Below the pieces are notes generated by a model that worked only from the letters and a program-made list of their open reading frames with translations, searched no databases and was not told where the DNA came from. The translations under genes and the position numbers were made by a program. DNA of 64,000 nt from Cystobasidiomycetes sp. EMM_F5 (taxonomy: Eukaryota): assembly GCA_051047955.1 (NCBI GenBank), contig JBPGPT010000017.1:1-64000 (forward strand). The letters are read 5' to 3'. Positions 23,737-64,000 of this stretch are shown here, one piece after another. Numbering within the stretch: position 1 is the first letter of the stretch; every line of letters starts with the position of its first letter.

Positions 23737-26700
23737 ATGTCGGCCGATGAAGGCCAGGGCAGCAAGCCCGCTATGGCCCAGAAACCGTCGACCGGAATAA
23801 CGCTGGCTTCTGTCGCCAGCTCTGGTTTCAAGCTCCAGGCTTCGCCGGACATGCCCAGCGAAGAGGTATTGGACGGTAATGCACCAGTTGAAGACACTTC
23901 TGCAGCAGGAGGACGCGATGCCGCACCACACCCGTCCGGCACTGCTGGAGCACTCAGTCAAGCCAGCAGCTTGATGGAAGATGGGGACTCCGGCATGTTT
24001 ACGTTTGAACGTCCGAATACCGGTCGACCTGGGAGCAGGTCTTCTGGGAACCCTACCCTCGGCTCGCGCTTGAATACTGGGATCGGTATTTCCAACATCA
24101 GCATGATGGGCGCAGCCGGTAGGCCTCTGACAGGTATTGCTATTCCCGAAGAAGTCGAGGGCATGGCGGAGGAGGATGCAGAGCCCTTCTCGCCAGCAGC
24201 AGCACTTGCGGCTGCGTATCGTGGTGGACAGTATGTTCCGCCAAAGACGGCTACCCGAACGTCCATGAGCACACCGATTATCGAACTGGACGAACGCATG
24301 AAGACGGCCAGTCACGCTAGCGCTCTCGATAACGGGCATTCGTCCCCAGCACAGTCTGGTATGACTGAGTATAGGTGTGTGCGAAGACAGTATAGAGCTG
24401 TATTTTCATCACTAATGATCTGCGCTGCACAGCATGACAACGGATAAAGTGGACATGGAAAAGATTGGCGCACCTAATCCGTATGAGAATCTGTCACCAG
24501 AAGAGCTGTTCAAAATGGCAGCGGAGCTGGATTTGATGCAAGCAGGGCATTCCAGGCCGGAGTTGCTTGATATTGGCGATGAGGAGGACTCGCCGTTTGC
24601 TGAAGTGCGAGCAAGTGTCAGCAATTTTGATGACCCAAACATGCCATGCCTCACATTCCGAGCCGCTTTCATCGGTCTTTCCTTCACAATTATCGGCGCC
24701 GCGCTCAACACATATTTTCAGCTTCGATATCCTGCTCCTTTATTAACAACGGTACTGGTAGAAATTCTTGCATACCCTTACGGAGTATTTTTGGCTCGCA
24801 TACTGCCGGTACGCGATTTCAAAACGCCTCGGTTGCTGCAAAAAATTGGCCTTTTCGAGGAATGGTCTTTCAACCCTGGGCCCTTCAATATTAAGGAACA
24901 CACTGTCATAATGATCATGGCGAATGTCGGCTTGAATCCAGCCTACGCTGTCAATATCCCCCTTACTCTCAACAAATTCTATGGCAAAACGCTCGGAGCT
25001 GGGTTTGATGTTTTGTTCCTCCTCAGTACGCAAGTCATTGGCTTCTCATTCGCTGGTCTAGTGCGACGATTCTTGGTGTGGCCAGCTGCCATGATCTGGC
25101 CTTCCAATCTCGTTATCTGTACGCTACTCAACAGCTTCCACGCGGAAGAATTCGATGGATCAGATGGGTCTTTATCCAAACTTCGCTATTTCTGGTATGT
25201 TTTTGCTGGGGCCTTCGTCTGGTACTTTGTACCAGGTAAGTCAGCAATATGCGCCGCATTAGCATTCTGTTGACGCTGCTCGCTCGGCAGGCTATCTATT
25301 TGTGGGATTATCGGCTTTCTCGTGGATATGTTGGGTTGCCCCCCGTATGTCCGTCGCTATCAGTGGTCCACCGTTGAGCTGAGAAGTACTGTCAGAAAAA
25401 CCCGTGGTCAACCAGCTCTTTGGCGTTATTAACGGACTGGGCATGAGCTGTCTCACTTTTGACTGGAGTCAAATCGCGTACATCAATTCGCCTCTCATAG
25501 TTCCTTGGTGGGCTCTGGTCAACGTATTTGTTGGTTTCGTCGGCATATACTGGATCATTGCGCCTGCACTCTACTACACAAATGTCCGTAATCTAGATTC
25601 TGATTACAGGGCTCAATGCTAACCGAGCATAATCCAGGTGTGGGACAGTGCTTATCTCCCAATTTCCACTAACACAATCTTTGATCGATTCGGAGCACCG
25701 TATAACACGTCTCGAGTCTTGACGCCAGACCTCAGACTTGACATAGCTGCTTACGAGCAGTACTCGCCGGCTTACTTACCGATTACTTTTGCCATGCTCT
25801 ACCTCATATACCTAGCTCTTGCATCATCGTCGCTAGTCCACCTCGTGCTCTACCATGGCAAAGACATGTGGAAGACGGTGAAAGACATCAAGAACGCTCA
25901 GACTGATATCCACGCCAAACTCATGCTCGCATACAAGGAGGTACCATGGTGGTGGTACGGCATAACTTTTTCTGTGTTCATAGCTATGGCTATTGCCGTG
26001 AATGAGGTAAGCAACGGCAAACTATATCAGCGGACGAGAATTAACGTGGTTATAGGCATACGATTCGTCATTGCCAGTGTGGGGCGTGCTTCTGGCCTTG
26101 CTTCTTCCGGCAATCTATATACTCCCGGCTGGGATCGTGTATGCCTTGTCCAACCAGGGTGTAAGTCAGCCAACGCTCCGTTGCCGGGTACCCACATAAG
26201 TGACAAGTGATACAGTTGAGCATCAGTCTTCTGGCACAACTCATACCTGGTTACCTACTACCTAACCGTCCGATGGCAAATGTGGTCGGTCTGAGAATGC
26301 GTTTTACTGAAAGAGTCCAGGCATCTGACTCTAAGTTATGTACAGATCTTTAAGGCTTACAGCAACCAGTCTCTGATTAACGCCCTCTACTGGGTCCAAG
26401 ATCTGAAACTCGGCCATTACATGAAGATTCCGCCGCGCACTACGTTCGCTGTTCAACTTAGTGCAACATGCGTCGCTGCTTGCATTCAGGTAGCCATGCT
26501 TCGCTTGCTCGAGACTGTTGTTCCGGATTTGTGCTCTCGCGATCAAGCGGCACTTCTGAGCTGTCCGGTTGCTCGTATAACATACAACGCATCACTGATA
26601 TGGTATGTTTCAAGGCACACACTATCAAGCCTGGGTTCAGCTGAGAGCGTTCGCACAGGGGCTTGATTGGGCCCGAACGCATCCTCGGTCCGGGAGCACC

Positions 26701-27246
26701 GTATAATCCAATTTTATGGGCGCTCCTTGGCGGCGCTTTCCTCCCGGTAATCACCTGGGTCATGTGCAAATACTTCAAATGGAAATGGGCGCAGCATATC
26801 AATATACCCGTCATGTTATCTGGAGCGTCACTGATACCCCCAGCGTCTGGAATCAACTACTCGTCCTGGTTCATCACGGGCTTCGCATTCCGTGCGTGCT
26901 TATCGTCAAGAAGTTTCCGTGACTAACGCTATTAGTACAGAATTTTTGCTTAGGCGGTATAAATTCCGATGGTGGGCCAAATTTGGGTTTATCACGTCTG
27001 CAGCAATGGACAGTGGCACCATTGCGAGTGCCATCCTCATGTTCGTCACGCTCATGGTGCCGAAAGGCGGGATCAACTTGAATTGGTGGGGCAACAACGT
27101 TTACATCAACACATACGATGCAATGGGAGTACCATACTTGACACCGTAAGTCGACTAGCATACAGAATAAGCAGCGAGGTGACAACCAAACTAACGTTGA
27201 TATTATGCGTAGTCCGGACTCTGGTTTCGGACGGACGATATGGTGA
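23737..27246 (+). CDS. OPT-family oligopeptide transporter A, long N-terminal tail
   Basis: EEDSPFAEVRASVSNFDDP, NPGPFNIKEH, WPAAMIWPSNL, DLKLGHYMKIPPR motifs; probable 5'UTR intron ~23614-23684. Confidence 0.96.
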
Positions 27247-27538
27247 ATAAGGCCAAATTGTAACAATGCATACCTCATTAGTATTACAGGATTGTTGTTG
27301 TTTGTTCGTGTCTGTGTTTCGATATGATGACAGCCTGTGCCGCAGAGTCAGCTTGCGTGACCCGACTCAGTATAATTTATGAATACAACAGGCGGGTATT
27401 AAGTCGTTACTACATGGGTCATGGAGTAAACGCGTAAAAGGATCTATATAAGGTATTCGTGCGCGATCTGCGAGTATCCGACGTGGTCATAGGAGTGGAC
27501 GTAACGATAAGAGTAACACGCTATGCAGTAGCATTACT

Positions 27539-27931
27539 CTACTTTCCGCAGCAGTGGCTGTGCGAGTCGCAAGTCAGATGCCTCGAGTTATTTGATGCAG
27601 CGGGAACAAGGAGCGCTCGACTCACATCCATCCTTGACGCTTCTCCTCGTCACGCTGGACCATCTCGACCTCGGAGCGCTTTCCTCCGCCCTTGCTGTAA
27701 AAGCATGAGTGCGTCAATGCGTTGCCCAGCGCGAGACTCGAGAGGAATCAACTTACATCCAGGCACCCTTAACGTTCAGAGCCTCACGCTCCTATAGACA
27801 GCCGGATAAGGATGTCAGTATGCACTGCTTCGCCTGTCTTGACCGCCGGATATGGCAAGACCCACCTCGACAACCGGAGCCGCGGCGACGGAAGCGATCA
27901 TAGCGAGAGCTGCGAGAATTGCGAACTTCAT
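27539..27931 (-). CDS. Small secreted prepropeptide (62 aa) with Kex2-type KR sites; putative peptide-signal precursor
   Basis: Exons 27931-27866, 27791-27757, 27694-27626, 27557-27539 with GTGGGT/GTAAGT/GTGAGT donors, YTGAC branch sites and YAG acceptors; protein MKFAILAALAMIASVAAAPVVEEREALNVKGAWIKGGGKRSEVEMVQRDEEKRQGWIHCCGK*. Confidence 0.88.
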
Positions 27932-29058
27932 GTTGGTAGGGTTTGTGGGTTGTGTTCGTGAGTATTCGTGTGTGGTTCGCAGCGACTGTGTGTGTGCAAG
28001 AGGAAGAAAGAGCGTCGTCCGCTCCGACTCGAGATGACGGGAATTCCTGGACCGACCTTACGCTCGGCGCTCCCACCTGCATTTCAGTGAGATGCCCTAT
28101 TCTTATCAATTCTGAGCGTGGAATTACCGCTCTTCCTGCCCAAAACCTGCCCGAAACCTCCCCTTGGCCCCTCTGCGCCACTACTGCCGATGCCCGAAAG
28201 TGTGTGCCGGAAATCGATGAACAATAAATTTACGATCACTACATCACTAGCGTGTCAACCTTGATGGAGAAGAATGGCGGACGCGACGGCGCACGTGAGC
28301 TGAGTGCTGACCAACGCGCGCTCGAGCCTGCCTCACAAATGTGCAGGCGCGTAAGAGGTGCATAACCGTGCATAACCACGAAGTGAATTCAATTCAACGC
28401 TTTTAAGCAATGCCGCTGGCTTTGCAAGCTTTGCCAACGAAGCCTAATCGTTGCTGCAGCTGGCGTCAGCCTTTCGCACAAGATTTATGGGGGCCATCAC
28501 TCGTGCAGCTTGTGTGAGGCGAGGGCTTGCAGATGCTGCACCTCGCCGAAACGGGAGCGGAACCTCACTCACGCACGGCATCGGACCTCTCGTCCTATGT
28601 GTTCGTAGCGAGTAGGGTTGCGAACCGAATCTGGCTGCATCCAGCTCGCGAAGATGCCATGGGCGCGTTTGCAGCATTGCCGGCAAGACCGCCCAGTATA
28701 AGGCGCTTGATAATCAGTACACCAGCAGCTCAAGTTGTTGAGATCCGACATCAGCACTATAACCGGTACTGCTCGTATCAATGTTTGTCAGCCAGCAGCT
28801 CGAGCGTAGCTCAACCGTCCTTCGGCCGTCAAGCTGGCAACACTTCTTCCATTATATCGCTCCAGAGCAAGACCATCAGTGACCAGGTCGTATGAAAGTC
28901 GCGTCAAAGTAATTCCGCAGCCTCCGGTTAGGAAATATCGACATTGCGCTTGTATTGCTACACACACACAGCCTATGGGCATGCAGCATCAGTCGTACAG
29001 CGGGGGAACGACCCATCGCCCAATTTCTTAACATAACAGGAAATACTGAATTCGCTTC

Positions 29059-32000
29059 TTAGGACCAAGATGTCGGGCCGAACCCTTCCGATGGAGCGTC
29101 TACAGGATCTTGTCAGCCTTGACTGCATGTTGCTAATCATAGCAGTGGCGATTCACCTAAATATGGCATTCCTAGCCAGTCGAACGTTTCTGTGAAAACT
29201 GCGTTGCCCCACCATTTTCTGCGTTTGTCGGGAAGCATCAGCTCGTGGACCATACGAGCTCTTGGTAGTGACATCGGCATACATGGAGATGCGACCGCTT
29301 TTCGGCAGCTGTAACGCAAAGAATATGAAGACCGTCGACAGGACTGTACCTGCATCTAGACCTGCTGAAGTGACGAAGTTGAATCTAGACCACCATCGGA
29401 AACGATGTCGTCTGAGATAGTACTCTGACGGATGGAAGAAGGAAAGCTTTAGTTGTCAAATTGCTGATCCGTATACGGACTTACGAAAAATTGCACCAGC
29501 AATGAACCAGCTCGAATAGTTGAGCCCCGTTGCCGGCGGAATGAACGTCACCCCGTTGATCAATACTGGAATATTGATATACCTCATCCAAGAGTTCGGC
29601 CACTTCTTGGATGCCAAGTAGAAAGGTATAGGGAGGAGCAGGCCAAGAAGAAGGAAGTACAGCAGAGCCCTGTAGGGGGTGTCGCCGCCAAAGAAACGCG
29701 CAGGTCCAATTACGCCCCATATGAGGGATGCCTGAAACTGCACGTTGGCAGGCGCGCAATTCATACGTGCCGGCTGATCAGGCGTGCATAGGTCTGCAAC
29801 GAAAACCTCCAAAGAGCGCTTGACCGCCACCTGAGCGAATGCCGATAAGAAGGTCGCCAGGATTTGGACTGATGCAGATTAGCCTGGGCGAATCGGGGAA
29901 GAGGTGGATTGGCAGCTCACCATGAAACGTAATCCGCGGCGGAATTTTCATGTAATGCCCCAATTTGAGGTCTTGAATGAAATACAGAGCGGATTGCAAG
30001 CACTGAATACTAAAGGTCTTGAAGATCATGTTGGGTATAGCTTGGTTGGGCAGCAGGTAGCCTGGAACGAGTTCTGCTAAAAGATTGACCGTTATCTATG
30101 AGATAGTGTCAGACGGAGCGTGATACATTGTATTGTCATCCAGTCCCCCTTACAAGCTGAGCTGTAATACTGTATACGTATCCGCCTGGCAACACGTAGA
30201 TGGCTGGGAGCAGAATGGCTAAGAGTAGTCCCCAAACCGGTAGACCCGTGTGGAAGACCTAGAGCAAAATAAGAACTTGCTTTCTATTGGTTAAATCGAA
30301 GTAGCTCACCTCAACGGCAACAACCGCTAAGCCGGTGAAAGTCAGAAAGACCAAAGCATACCACCAGTCCGGTACCTCAGGATAATTACGCATGAGCTTG
30401 GCATGCACGTCTTCCTCTTCAGATTTTGAACTTCTGAACTTCCCCCAGATCTCCTTCCCATGGTAGAGTATGGTGTGCACTACTGCCGAAGAGGACAAGC
30501 AGAACGAGAGCGCATAAACGACGGCGTAGGTAGTGGTGACAAATAGGGGCGAGTATGCTCTGAAGGCATCTTCGTCAATCTTGATGTCGGGAGTGATTAC
30601 TTGCGTTACGTTATATGGCATGCCATACCGGTCGAAATTGCCTTGCGAAGAGATGGGTAGGTATGCAAAGTTCCACGTCTAGTTGCGCACAGTCTCGCGA
30701 CGTGAGCATATACAGTCCGCCGCAGAAGAAGCGACTCACGTTGGTGTAGTAGAATATGGGGACAAGGACCCAGTATATGATTACAAAGCCAGCGGTAATA
30801 TTGACGATTGCAAACCATGGCACAAACAGTGGAGAAACCACGTACGCAATCTGCGTCCAATCAAAGCTTATGCCAGACATTCCAAGGCCGGTTGCTACGC
30901 CAAAGAGTTGGTTCACAACGCGGTTTCGAGGCCAGATCCAACACACAAAGGAAAAGAATGATAGTCCTTGGAAGATGAAGCCTGGCATAAAGTACCAAAG
31001 GAAGGCGCCCGAAGCAACGAAGAAAAACATCTTGAACCGCGTCACTCCGTTTAATGGGTCATCTTCCTCGGCGTGGAAGGTGTTGAACAGCGTACAAGTT
31101 ACCAAGTTTTGAGGCCAGATGAGCGATGCTGGCCAAACGAGGAACCGTCGGCAGATCCCCGCGAATGAGAATCCAATGAAAGAGGTGCTGATTGTCAACA
31201 GTGCGTCGAAGCCCATCCCTTTCGGGATGTTGTAGAATCGATCCAGCACGATTGTTGTGTTCAAAGCGAATGAGGGAGATATTGCTACATTTGCCATGAT
31301 GGTAATCACGGCATGCTCCTTGACATTGAATGGCCCAGGGTTGAGTGAGAACGTGCTGGGAAAGCCGATGCGTTGCAAAAACTTGGGATACTTGTAGTCC
31401 GTTGCAGGTAGAATTCTGTCCATAAGCTTGCCCGCAGGATAGGAGAGCACCTGAACGGTAATTGGGGTGAACATGGGACTTGGCTGTCTGACGAGGAAGA
31501 AGAAGTTGAAAGCAGACCCAGCGGCCGTGAAGAAGCACCCCAAAAATACTGCACGAAATGTTAGACAAGGCATCATTGGATCATCGTAGTTTGAAACCGA
31601 TGCAGCTACTTCTGGATATGGCGAGTCCTCCTCATCAAGCTGGAATGCGGAGAGAGTAAGCTTGTCATCGCCCATGCCGCCCATTTTGGCACCACCAAGG
31701 TCACCGAGCGAGTCGTGCGTGTGGCGATTGAGTGTGCTGTCAGCGCTGTATCCACTGGCAACGAAGCCGCTTTCCATAGTCGCAGGAGTAGATTCGATGA
31801 CGAAGTTTGACATCTCGTACGTATTCGATCGGACACCCTTTGTGTATCGCATATCCGTGAAGTACTTTTCGTCCTTTGGACTGCCGCTTCGTCCGTGCAT
31901 TGACTTCTCGGAAAAGTAGGCATGGTCCGAATGACCACCATCCCTGGCTATCGGAGGCGAGCGACGCTGCTTTCTTCTGGTTGACATCGTACGCAAGCTT

Positions 32001-32845
32001 GCATCCCCGTGCTGATCATCAGTGCAATACGATGGAGGCATGCCCTCGCTATCGTTGCGATTACGAGAGCGCGACATGGATCGCATGGAAATTGCGCGCA
32101 CACTGTCTTCCCCAGCCAGCTCTATAACGGGTGTGGACGTGCGGCGTGCTGAATAAGCGGAAATGGCAGACTGTGGATCACCAGAATGCATTGGCGATGA
32201 TGGATAGGCATATGCTAGCCTGCGCATATTGCGTCCGTCACTATCGGCAGCACCGCTGCTTCCGTCGGCATCTTGTTGTTGCTGGTACTGCCTGGCAATT
32301 CTTTGAGCCTCCGTTGTGGACGGAGGCGTCGTTGTGGAGTGAGTAGGACTATGCCGCTTATTTAGGACCTCGGAAGCTTGCTCTGATGGGGTATGAAGCG
32401 CCTGGCGGGCCGTTGGTAAGTGGTACTTGTACTTGATGGCATGATGATCTCCGCCGGTCGCATCGGGGAGGCCATTTACAGAAGGCTCCTTTGCTGTGGG
32501 ACTGCCTGTCTGTCCAGTTTGCGTCAAGGTCTGTGCAAGATTGGCGGTTTGCGGGCGTGTGAATTCGAAGAGATCGCTGTCGTCTTCGTCATCGTCGAAT
32601 TGGTCTTCACCGTCATCCTCGTTGATATCGCCAATGGTAAAATTGGCGTTGGCTGATTGTGAGGTTTGCCCTTGCTGCTGTCGTGGTTGCTCGTATACAT
32701 CAGGCACCGCACCTGGAGTACCTCGCTGCCATTGTGATGTGGACGAGGGTAAGGAGGCTGATACCTGACCGTCGCCTCCAGTGATACCAACGATGCTACT
32801 GCTCACGCTCTCGCCTTTCTTCTTCCGCCGAAACAAGTTGTGCAT
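29059..32845 (-). CDS. OPT-family oligopeptide transporter B, ~400-aa N-terminal tail
   Basis: EEDSPYPEVAASVSNYDDP, NPGPFNVKEH, WPASLIWPQNL, DLKLGHYMKIPPR; ends GFGPTSWS*. Confidence 0.96.
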
Positions 32846-33713: not shown

Positions 33714-34985
33714 ATGTCGGCAGCAAGCTCTGATGCTCCGCTGGAGCTCACGTATGCCTCCTATGGTTCGCTTGATATGTGCATCGATGTCTTTATACCC
33801 GAAGTCGCGACAGCGGAAAAGCCAGCACCTATCCTATTGTGGTTTGTGAGTAATCTCGTAAATGGATGCACGCGTCACCATCGCTAATGAGTATCTCTTG
33901 AAAGCATGGCGGAGGTCTTTTACAAGCAAGTCCTTGATGACGTCCTGAATTCGTGTGGACTACTTTGTTTACGTTGCTGTACGGCGAATAAAAGGGAACC
34001 CGCAAAGGTGTGCTCCTATCATTCATACCGGTCGCCCGTTCCTCTAACGATTATCGCATTTCAGGCGCTCCGCATCATTGCCATACTGCCGTAAAAAACG
34101 GACTGTGTTTGATATCGGCAGATTATAGGCTGGCTCCACAAGTCAAGCTGCCAGACATCATGCAGGATTGCGCCAATCTCATGACATACATTCGCTCTCA
34201 AGACTTCAGGCAACATACCAAAAGTCTGGTAGACAGCGACCGGATCTGCGTTTCTGGAGGATCTGCCGGAGGATGGTTAGCTCTTCTCGTAGGATTGGGC
34301 ATCGGGTTCAAGGAATGCGGCATCGAGCCGCCTTCACCATGCAAAAATCTCATCATTGCCAGTTTATACCCAATATCAGACCTGCAGGATCCGTGAGCCA
34401 GGACAGATACTTCATGCAATTTGCCGGCTACTGTGCTAATCTTATACATCATCGCTATCTTCAGCTTCTGGCACACGAAGCAGAGACCTGTCTCGTACAT
34501 GTCCCGCGTCGTGACAGACGAGGAGGTGGCAGAGCATTTGGATACACGCAAGCCGGCGTTGGCTTACAACACCCCATCGGACGGCCGCAACGTGTGCTAT
34601 CACTACATGGTACAAGAGTGAGCTTCCCGTGGTCTCGTTGCCTGTCTTGTTGGCTATGGCTGACGAATGTCTGTCTGTCTTGTTCAGAGCAATACTTACA
34701 AAGCTTCTCCTCGAGGGTATTGACATCCCGCCGACCGCATTTAGTGTAGCGCCAGCAATACGTGAGGGTCGGTACACCTCCTTACCGCCGACCTATATCA
34801 CGCACGGGACAGTCGACGACAAAGTTCCGATTCAGCAGGCAGACGATGTGGTGGAGGCACTTGAAGCAAGAAGCGACAAGGAGGTGCTGTATGAACGGAT
34901 TGATGGCGCAGATCATCTCTATGACCGGGATGAGAAGGTGGATATGCATATCATGTACGACTTTATTCGGCGTCATTTTGCATGA
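33714..34985 (+). CDS. Alpha/beta hydrolase (HSL-like esterase fold), multi-exon
   Basis: Spliced WFHGGGLLQG oxyanion motif, ADYRLAPQ, GGSAGG nucleophile elbow, HGTVDDKVP and GADHLYD catalytic Asp/His. Confidence 0.9.
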
Positions 34986-57632: not shown

Positions 57633-58520
57633 GACAGCTTTACAGGCCTGGTTGTGCTGGATGTACAATAATGCGATAGACTCGCCATTTGTCAATGTGA
57701 GCGCGATTGGCGGAATCCAATACGACCAACACTAACCTATCAACCACACTCAATAGCCTAACAGGAACGAAAAGTTGCGCCAGAAATGCAATATTGGAAC
57801 AGAGTTAGTCTTATGTGTTGCTCTGTCTCTGCAACAACGCTAAAGTGCACCGCAGTTCAATGTGTTCACAACTTCAAGCATTGGCAAAATTGTTAATAGG
57901 TACCCCAAGATTGCCAATGGTCTCATATAGAAACATTGACCGTATATCGCAGTGCTTGGCTTCGTTCTACTTATACCGTTAGGTGTACGTTGAAACCCAA
58001 ATAATGAGATTGCTGCACGGAAGATACTGACGCTGTGTGATCATAGGGATTAGGCGCCGCTCTAACTCTACATCCCCGCACTGTTCGACAGCGCCTCAAG
58101 AACAAAATGGAGAAACGATCAGAAGGCTTGCGCAGTATCGCCGACTGCCGTGAGGGTGATCCTTGCGATGGTGCACGCGGCATGTCGGCCAGTTCGGGAA
58201 GTCAAATGTGTCCCAGGCAGGCGAGGCATGTACTGGAAGTACCCTTCTCCGACATGGATGGCGAGCCGAAGGGTGTAGCTGTCTGCGATGAGCACTATAG
58301 ACGGTGGAAAGCGTTTTTGCGTGTCAAAGAAAACTATCAGTAATAGTTGTAGTAGTACAGCTGCAGACGCTGGTTTCATTGACTTGCAGCTTAGAATATC
58401 ATTGCGATGCGCAGAGGAAACAAGCGGGGCCTGAGCATAATACGAATGCAGACGCAGATCGCAATGCATCCGGTGCGTCTCTATCTTACAACGCTCTGGT
58501 AAAGAGTGCTTAGGAGGTTA

Positions 58521-60783: not shown

Positions 60784-61617
60784 GGCGATGCCTGCTGCTG
60801 CGACGTGACCAGCTGCCTCTAATACTTCTGGCAGTCTCGAGGGCCGTCCTGCACCTCTCCAAGAATTGCTGTCCTGCTAGTCCTCGCTTTCCAGCCTCAC
60901 TGCATTCGCGCGAGCATACGTCCTGCCATCAACAGGAGCAGTGCAGAATGGAGCGATGCGCGTGCTGAACAATTATGAATGAACAGATGAAGCCATGCAC
61001 CGCGCGCGCCAAAATAGCAATACTTGACCCGATGTAAAATGCAAAGCTGACCTTGACCATTGCGGTCTTAGCTTATCATTATTCTCTCTATACTCTATGC
61101 CGAAAAGCTTAACGCTGCGCCATGTTGGGGCCGTGTGGCACTTCCACCTGTGTTTCGTTCTTCGGACTGGCCAAACCGAGCTCAAGTCTCGCGATTTGCA
61201 CCCGCTGGCTAGCAGTGGAGCTTCAGTAGAGGTCACGACCACTCTCAGAATCAAAATATGTTCCCAAGATCAGAGTGCCTCATTGAGACGTGGATTCTAT
61301 GGCACCGCCGAGACAATGTTACGGTCTGACATGGTCGAGGAGACGGCATCGCTATGAAAACATGTCTCGAACACATTTACTGTCCACATGTCTCCGACGC
61401 TGAAGTGTCAGGCTAGACTGACCGACTCACTCCGGCCTCTTCCCGCTACACCCCGAATAGTCGAAAGCGAAATGTGACGGCGCCTCATTCTGTCCTTAGC
61501 TCTACTCCTTACTTGCTCGGCTCCCGGACTGTCATCTCCCGTCTCAGTGTTCATAAATCCCTCTTCCGCATTGCACATCCGCACGCGCCTCCTCCGACAG
61601 GTTTGCCGCACACTACA

Positions 61618-63365: not shown

Positions 63366-64000
63366 ATGATCTCTACACGATTCTCACTCGCCTTGGCCTT
63401 TGTCGCCTCTGCTTCGGCAGCCATCGTACCTCGTCAACTCGAGGCCGTACCAGACTGCGGCATCCGATGCTTTAATAGAAAGCTTGTCGAGCGCCCATGT
63501 GAGTGCTCCTTTTGAAGCTCGTGCTTTGCAACAATCGCTCTCGATAGATAATTGACCGCTCGTACCGTTCAACGGTTTAGGGGGGCCGTGCATCATCGAC
63601 TTCAGAGAGTAGCACATGCTGATCTCATGTTTGCGTCTTTCTCAGCGCTGGCTCCTAGCTGCCAGGCTGGTGACTGGAGCGTACGTTCTCCTGTTACTCT
63701 TACAATTGAACGCCATATACTAATGTTGCATGACTCTGCAGTGCCTCTGCGGTACCCAGAGCTTCCTCCAAGCGTACACCAACTGCTGCAACGATCATTG
63801 CGTGAGTTATCCTGATATGTGGAGCACGCAATGTCTAATCGCTGATTATGCTCTGTTCTACAAGTCCCAAAACGATCTCCCCGCAGCCACTTCCGCAGCG
63901 TCCTCATTCTGCGCCGCTCTTGGTGCCGGTCTGACCATCACGCTCCCTTCGACCACAATCACCGGTACAGGTTCTGCTTCTGCTGCACTCTCATCGGCAC
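63366..64000 (+). CDS. CFEM-domain secreted protein, 3' end outside window
   Basis: Signal peptide MISTRFSLALAFVASASA; spliced PDCGIRCF...SCQAGDWSCLC...YTNCCNDHC...SFC matches the CFEM cysteine spacing; Ser/Thr-rich tail follows. Confidence 0.85.

Follow-up and report, generated by a model that had tools for sequence, protein, structure and literature searches.

Apart from the mating pheromones, most of what is known of peptide signalling between fungal cells comes from a single well-studied example, Qsp1 of Cryptococcus. A locus of the yeast-like basidiomycete Cystobasidiomycetes sp. EMM_F5 raises two questions in this connection, namely whether a very small, intron-rich reading frame with the layout of a secreted peptide precursor belongs to a genuine gene, and, if so, whether its place between two oligopeptide transporter genes makes it a candidate for peptide signalling in another subphylum. 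The locus lies in the first 64,000 nt of contig JBPGPT010000017.1 (assembly GCA_051047955.1), and this whole 64-kb stretch is referred to below as the window. A preliminary description, prepared from the sequence, had read a hidden, spliced frame of 62 amino acids at 27539..27931, and its coordinates and frame were reproduced here by joining the exons by coordinates: the minus strand from 27931 to 27539 holds four exons and three introns and yields a 189-nt frame encoding 62 residues. The features of the gene, in the direction of transcription, are as follows.

27932..28012, minus strand: putative 5′ leader, with a CT-rich block (~28012-27997) followed by a C/A-rich stretch without ATG; A at -3 of the start codon
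27866..27931, minus strand: predicted exon 1, with ATG at 27931, 22 signal-peptide-like codons and the donor GTGGGT at its end
27792..27865, minus strand: predicted intron 1 (74 nt), GTGGGT..TACTGAC..TATAG, phase 0
27757..27791, minus strand: exon 2 (35 nt), with its 3′ end within the Ile codon of the first W-I; covered by the X1 and X3 contigs over 27757-27785 and 27757-27787, respectively
27695..27756, minus strand: intron 2 (62 nt), GTAAGT..TTGAC..TACAG, phase 2; 27694 joined to 27757 in the X1 and X3 contigs
27626..27694, minus strand: exon 3 (69 nt), encoding G-G-G-K-R, an acidic spacer, K-R, and Q-G-W plus two bases of Ile; covered in full by the X1 and X3 contigs with 0 differences
27558..27625, minus strand: intron 3 (68 nt), GTGAGT..CTGAC..CACAG, phase 2, at the same codon position as intron 2; 27557 joined to 27626 in the X1 and X3 contigs
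27539..27557, minus strand: coding part of exon 4, with the last base of Ile, H-C-C-G-K and the stop TAG at 27541-27539
27394..27538, minus strand: 3′ UTR spanning 145 nt or more; the contigs end at 27394 (X1) and 27398 (X3), ~50 nt past a TATATA element

The CT-rich block and the C/A-rich stretch upstream of 27931 would, as fungal genes go, be promoter or leader.

Evidence for transcription came from four public runs mapped to 27100-28300 (X1, X3, X16 and X17). Run X1 (organism label A, study P1) contributed one contig of 263 nt at depth 3, and X3 (organism label B, study P3) one contig of 260 nt at depth 4.4, the run kind ‘RNA’ being a guess for both. Both contigs skip 27558-27625 and 27695-27756 exactly, and the CT..AC ends of the skipped stretches on the plus strand read GT..AG on the strand of the gene; the sole difference of the X3 contig from the window is one base, at 27477 in the 3′ UTR. 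The predicted splicing out of introns 2 and 3 is borne out by two independent data sets from two studies, and an intronless DNA retrocopy is an unlikely source of the contigs. The 3′ ends of the two contigs, within 4 nt of each other, look like a poly(A) site near 27394-27398. The raw RNA runs X16 and X17, which carry the same species label as X1, gave 0 reads on 27100-28300, a result without bearing on expression. A strict intron pattern (GTRRGT, a CTRAY-type branch and YAG) has 18 matches on the whole minus strand of the window, three of which fall within this 393-nt stretch. The four-exon micro-gene is genuine and transcribed, with two of its three junctions seen. The preliminary description had proposed that all three be checked in transcripts; introns 2 and 3 came through this check in the X1 and X3 contigs, and intron 1 lies outside the contig coverage. 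A four-exon micro-gene of this structure could never be called from open reading frames. The sole product on record for the locus is P0001, an unspliced single-ORF call of the neighboring transporter OPTb (30614-32845, minus strand) that runs into its first intron, and the proteins listed for this assembly seem to come from ORF calling rather than from spliced gene models.

The first exon is a separate matter. The contigs stop at 27785 (X1) and 27787 (X3), 4-6 nt short of the exon-2 acceptor, and no record lies over 27797-28300. Use of exon 1 is nevertheless highly probable, judging from several features of the sequence. Counting from the ATG at 27931, 22 codons lead exactly to a consensus donor, and the frame carries on through the phase-0 intron; intron 1 has a branch motif of consensus type placed 22 nt ahead of its acceptor; and exon 2 can be read without a stop from that acceptor on, in phase with exon 1. 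In a crude signal-peptide (hydropathy) filter applied to both strands of the window (128 kb), four ATG starts pass, and that at 27931 scores best. The ATG comes after the CT-rich block and the C/A-rich leader devoid of ATG, and no ORF 3′ of that leader in the modelled mRNA is longer than the 62-residue frame. Further upstream, a 74-codon ORF in another frame begins at 28082 (minus strand), 150 nt 5′ of the peptide ATG, and would be an upstream ORF only if transcription started beyond the CT-rich block. The 5′ ends of the X1 and X3 contigs, which come from different studies, lie within 2 nt of each other, and low depth, library geometry or a nearby (second) transcript start are possible reasons.

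This end point invites a different model, in which exon 1 is not transcribed, transcription starts close to the 3′ end of ‘intron 1’, and exons 2-4 make up a short RNA that, from its first ATG, has just an 18-codon cytosolic frame ending in C-C-G-K, or that is non-coding. Such a model would accommodate both the near-coincidence of the contig ends in two studies and the lack of a record covering exon 1, and the internal ATG that it would use has G at -3 and G at +4. Weighing against it, contig depths of just 3 and 4.4 mean that the ends may reflect coverage, and the exon-2 frame, open from its acceptor, continues a textbook signal peptide in frame across an intron whose donor, branch and acceptor all match the consensus. 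If the 18-codon frame were a CaaX product, its C-C-G-K would be a poor CaaX box in view of prenyltransferase specificity, and none of the 73 ORFs scanned is a pheromone receptor or homeodomain gene. An untranscribed exon 1 is thus judged quite unlikely, and the discussion below proceeds from the four-exon frame with its predicted signal peptide.

Three other starts in the window also pass the crude filter. At 63366-63512 (plus strand), a signal-peptide-like start leads into a stretch rich in Cys (P-D-C-G-I-R-C-F ... C-E-C) that runs to a stop, possibly the opening exon of a small secreted cysteine-rich, CFEM-like protein. The two remaining ATG starts lie at 57861-57926 and 60995-61060, both on the minus strand.

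The 62-residue precursor opens with a signal-like N-terminus, after which come a short pro-segment, the first core, which contains G-A-W-I and ends in G-G-G-K-R, an acidic spacer ending in K-R, and a second core whose first residue is Q and whose end is H-C-C-G-K followed by the stop. All of the elements itemized in the preliminary description (signal-like N-terminus, KR sites, acidic spacer and both W-I cores) are present in the joined frame. Three fragments are delimited by the two KR sites, W-I and G-K are all that the cores have in common, and the only two cysteines of the precursor are adjacent. The residues after the KR sites are S-E and Q-G, and an E-A dipeptide follows E-E-R. When the 45-residue pro-region was shuffled 20,000 times, two W-I dipeptides arose in 0.1% of cases and at least two KR sites in 5.7% (P = 0.057); the composition is rich in K and R, so that the KR count by itself is marginal. 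In each W-I core a phase-2 intron interrupts the Ile codon, at the same position in both, a hint of an ancient duplication within the gene; at the DNA level, however, the two halves are not significantly similar, 72 of 500 shuffles scoring as high.

Relatives of the gene were sought with unspliced pieces as queries, and these searches hence have low power. Neither the exon-3 ORF nor the exon-1 ORF (41 residues each) returned a candidate in a word-indexed search of proteins of 22-72 residues. An exhaustive HMMER search with a 30-residue piece returned one match, P0135 (E = 1.6e-5), which was discarded as spurious, since intron-encoded residues take part in the alignment and the score adds up over six repeat copies within a 737-residue protein. 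No paralogue of the peptide gene was found within the 64-kb window, and the exact exon-3 50-mer had 0 matches in the metagenome collection. An Rfam scan of 27000-29600 gave 0 matches at E <= 1, and the introns, at 62-74 nt, were judged too short to hold a snoRNA. For the peptide gene, ‘hidden’ is a fair label, while ‘orphan’ is unproven.

The most informative context of the gene, absent from the preliminary description, is the pair of oligopeptide transporter (OPT) genes that flank it.

~24578..27149, plus strand: OPTa, a multi-exon gene for an Isp4/OPT1-type oligopeptide transporter, in convergent orientation to the peptide gene; four ORF pieces carry PF03169; matched by tblastn with C. neoformans OPT1 (P0065) and C. 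minutum P0007
~29065..32845, minus strand: OPTb, a paralogous OPT1-type transporter gene, upstream of the peptide gene on the same strand; PF03169; long disordered N-terminal extension

OPTa and OPTb flank one 1.9-kb gap, are ~56% identical over the first large exon, and both have long disordered N-terminal extensions rich in Ser, Thr and Gln, that of OPTa probably starting further upstream, near 23737. Among the best 120 of 769 OPTb relatives, the closest named ones are from Cystobasidium minutum (61% identity), followed by Sporobolomyces, Rhodosporidiobolus and Leucosporidium (Pucciniomycotina), and two further proteins are closer, at 77-79%. A tree was built from 30 of these 120 rows, picked for species with paired paralogues, nearest matches, Tremellomycetes and a few outgroups, together with two pieces from the window. 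In this tree, OPTa groups with one C. minutum paralogue (SH-aLRT 91), while OPTb groups with the two 77-79% proteins (100), in a weakly supported group that holds the other C. minutum paralogue (89). On these placements, the duplication that gave rise to OPTa and OPTb seems to predate the split from C. minutum. Among the matches listed, paired OPT locus tags occur in Sporobolomyces ruberrimus (JCM16303_000242 and JCM16303_000244, on one contig) and in S. carnicolor (JCM3766R1_004946 and JCM3766R1_004947), which suggests that paired OPT paralogues are common in Pucciniomycotina. The S. ruberrimus tags leave one annotated gene between the OPT pair. A comparison of the OPTb domain with metagenomes gave one distant locus (L001, 34% identity), which was uninformative.

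The rest of the neighborhood was surveyed by a Pfam scan of 73 ORFs (18 + 55) of at least 110-120 residues, a scan that could miss genes made solely of short exons. The other genes of the window are housekeeping genes in many short exons, encoding HOOK, chitin synthase, MAT1, STI1, an E1 dehydrogenase, a gamma-tubulin complex component, prefoldin and SNF5. No RiPP tailoring enzyme was seen among the 73 ORFs. A weak Peptidase_S9 match at 34515-34982, considered as a prolyl-oligopeptidase, was set aside as an esterase-like alpha/beta hydrolase, the neighboring piece being Abhydrolase_3/BD-FAE.

With this layout and neighborhood, the precursor can be placed against the known classes. Lipopeptide (a-factor-like) pheromone precursors have no signal peptide and end in a canonical CaaX box. 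The present precursor resembles those of basidiomycetes in being small, in having a Cys at -4 from the C-terminus and in its Trp-containing core, and differs from them in its signal-like exon 1 and C-C-G-K end; in addition, no STE3-type 7TM receptor or homeodomain match was found in the scan of the window.

The preliminary description had proposed a KEP-like precursor. With KEPs, including the ascomycete alpha-factor precursors, the frame shares a predicted signal peptide (the crude hydropathy filter is strongly passed by predicted exon 1), a pro-region, KR sites, an acidic spacer, a Gln after KR and small predicted products. By the working definition in PMC6339444 (the Le Marquer 2019 pipeline), a KEP has an N-terminal signal peptide, no transmembrane segment and at least three repeated motifs (at least four fragments) between KR, RR or KK sites, and measured against that number of repeats the KEP assignment does not hold, since the KR sites number two and the two cores are unlike each other. 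A length of 62 residues is also far below the typical KEP size. The X-Ala or X-Pro dipeptides that form the Ste13 signature of alpha-factor-type precursors are absent after the KR sites; the Ste13 trimming that had been suggested at E-A is hard to sustain, the dipeptide following a single Arg (E-E-R) and not a dibasic site, which would require a non-canonical first cut. By contrast, the Gln that had been pointed out as a possible source of pyroglutamate does stand directly after the second KR, and formation of pyroglutamate after a KEX2 cut is documented for basidiomycete KEPs (PMC9769878).

The same preliminary description had raised, as speculative, C-terminal amidation of the kind known from animals. 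Metazoan neuropeptide and prohormone precursors share with the frame a signal peptide, dibasic sites, acidic spacers and Gly before basic residues, and its G-K-R and G-K-stop are formally the metazoan amidation signature, so that an animal-style neuropeptide precursor with both Gly-Lys-Arg and Gly-Lys ends converted to amides can be envisaged. There is no homology to such precursors, and PAM, described as the only enzyme for the reaction, is reported to be missing throughout fungi (PMC6529398); amidation is accordingly unlikely here, and a neuropeptide precursor of the animal type is hardly credible.

A RiPP precursor with, for example, a Trp-Cys cross-link or a cyclised core, and with enzymes encoded elsewhere, would suit the closeness of Trp and Cys in the C-terminal core, and fungal precursors of the dikaritin type (ustiloxin, phomopsin) likewise use a signal peptide and KR sites (PMC7329392). 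What speaks against it is that the cores are not repeated, that the remainder of the window consists of housekeeping genes, and that no gene for DUF3328/UstYa, a tyrosinase, a methyltransferase-fused precursor or a prolyl-oligopeptidase was found among the 73 ORFs; this reading is very improbable. On its predicted features, the precursor would best be classed as a two-core, non-repeat, Kex2-type secreted propeptide that is positioned like QSP1, and may be called prohormone/KEP-like in its working.

The likeness in position concerns the Qsp1/Opt1 quorum-sensing system of Cryptococcus neoformans, the only peptide-based one established among fungi, in which the secreted Qsp1 precursor is processed extracellularly by Pqp1 and the peptide enters the cell through Opt1 (PMC7537855). 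The sole C. neoformans cluster among the 120 OPTb relatives listed is P0065 (54% identity, 1055 residues), which has Met at 484 and Pro at 358. Met484 and Pro358 are the residues reported as mutated in CNAG_03013 (OPT1) in bioRxiv 10.1101/2020.08.07.241190, and P0065 was taken to be OPT1 because it carries both. QSP1/CQS1 is CNAG_03012 in PMC8561399, a tag that PMC10914677 has as well, and we infer the adjacency of QSP1 and OPT1 from the consecutive tags CNAG_03012 and CNAG_03013, not from a map. The arrangement of a small secreted-precursor gene beside a gene for an OPT1-type importer recurs here, with OPT genes on both sides of the peptide gene and OPT1 itself as the best C. neoformans relative listed.

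Both systems are from basidiomycetes and comprise a very small secreted-precursor gene that adjoins the gene for an OPT1/Isp4-type transporter with a long N-terminal extension, and OPTb aligns to residues 202-1053 of C. neoformans OPT1. The products are short and contain Trp, in the present case by prediction; Qsp1 has 11 residues, a size bracketed by the 7-22 residues of the peptides predicted here. The differences are that Cryptococcus belongs to the Tremellomycetes and the present fungus to the Pucciniomycotina, that there are two flanking transporters here, and that Qsp1 is described in citing papers as one C-terminal 11-mer freed extracellularly by Pqp1, as against two unlike cores bounded by KR. 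Against the Qsp1 primer fragments given in PMC10914677, no sequence likeness was evident. A limited literature search for Qsp1 homologues in other Tremellales returned no paper that mentions Qsp1.

The gene lies between two OPT1-type genes, as QSP1 probably lies beside OPT1. It would encode a Kex2-type processed, secreted propeptide, and its position is the ground for the proposal that one or both peptides would serve as secreted autocrine or density signals that are taken up again by the flanking transporters. This is our leading reading, and it could about equally well prove right or wrong; the link between the peptide gene and the transporters is drawn from adjacency alone, noticed after the fact. 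In the proposed sequence of events, the N-terminal ~17-18 residues would direct entry into the ER and then be removed, after which a Kex2-type convertase of the late Golgi would cut after both Lys-Arg sites and a Kex1-type carboxypeptidase would trim the trailing basic residues. The expected products are an N-terminal peptide of 14-22 residues with G-A-W-I and a Gly end, the acidic 11-residue spacer, and a C-terminal peptide of 7-8 residues with W-I-H-C-C, in which the exposed Gln would likely be cyclised to pyroglutamate. Both W-I peptides and the acidic spacer would be secreted, and the peptides might then be re-imported by the flanking OPTs. Precedents for the individual steps exist, as KEX2 is near-universal in fungi and reported missing from few groups (PMC6339444), and KEX2/KEX1 processing, cleavage after a single Arg and N-terminal pyroglutamate are all documented for basidiomycete KEP-derived peptides (PMC9769878). 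A fuller version, in which the locus would be a second Qsp1-like peptide-importer module for quorum sensing or autocrine signalling, in Pucciniomycotina and with Golgi Kex2 processing, and in which the W-I peptides would be re-imported and act inside the cell, is considered unlikely.

The same observations could also describe a small secreted peptide or protein that is not coupled to the transporters, such as a defence or antimicrobial peptide, a metal-binding His-Cys-Cys peptide or a cell-wall factor, for which KR cutting would be optional and whose position would be a by-product of the OPT duplication. The structural evidence for it is identical to that for the signalling peptide, the tie to the transporters is adjacency only, the number of KR sites is marginal, and many secreted proteins that are not signals are also processed by KEX2/KEX1, as reported in PMC9769878. 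Set against this, a random gene would be unlikely to lie between two OPT1-type genes, the position mirrors QSP1-OPT1, and two cysteines only, side by side, speak against a disulfide-stabilised defence fold. A secreted peptide without such coupling to the transporters is possible but doubtful, and the processed propeptide with re-imported signals is retained as the preferred reading.

What is new here is the OPT-flanked position, which repeats the known QSP1-OPT1 arrangement in another subphylum and marks the product as a candidate signalling peptide. Here, in a basidiomycete lineage far removed from Cryptococcus, a transcribed gene for a precursor of the secreted type has a relative of the Qsp1 importer on either side, which offers a concrete test of how widespread peptide-plus-importer modules are. 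As this locus shows, multi-intron micro-genes of this kind are invisible to ORF-based calling. If small secreted-peptide genes adjoin OPT1-type transporter genes across basidiomycetes, a peptide gene next to that of its importer would be an old and general architecture of fungal signalling that ORF-based annotation has hidden.
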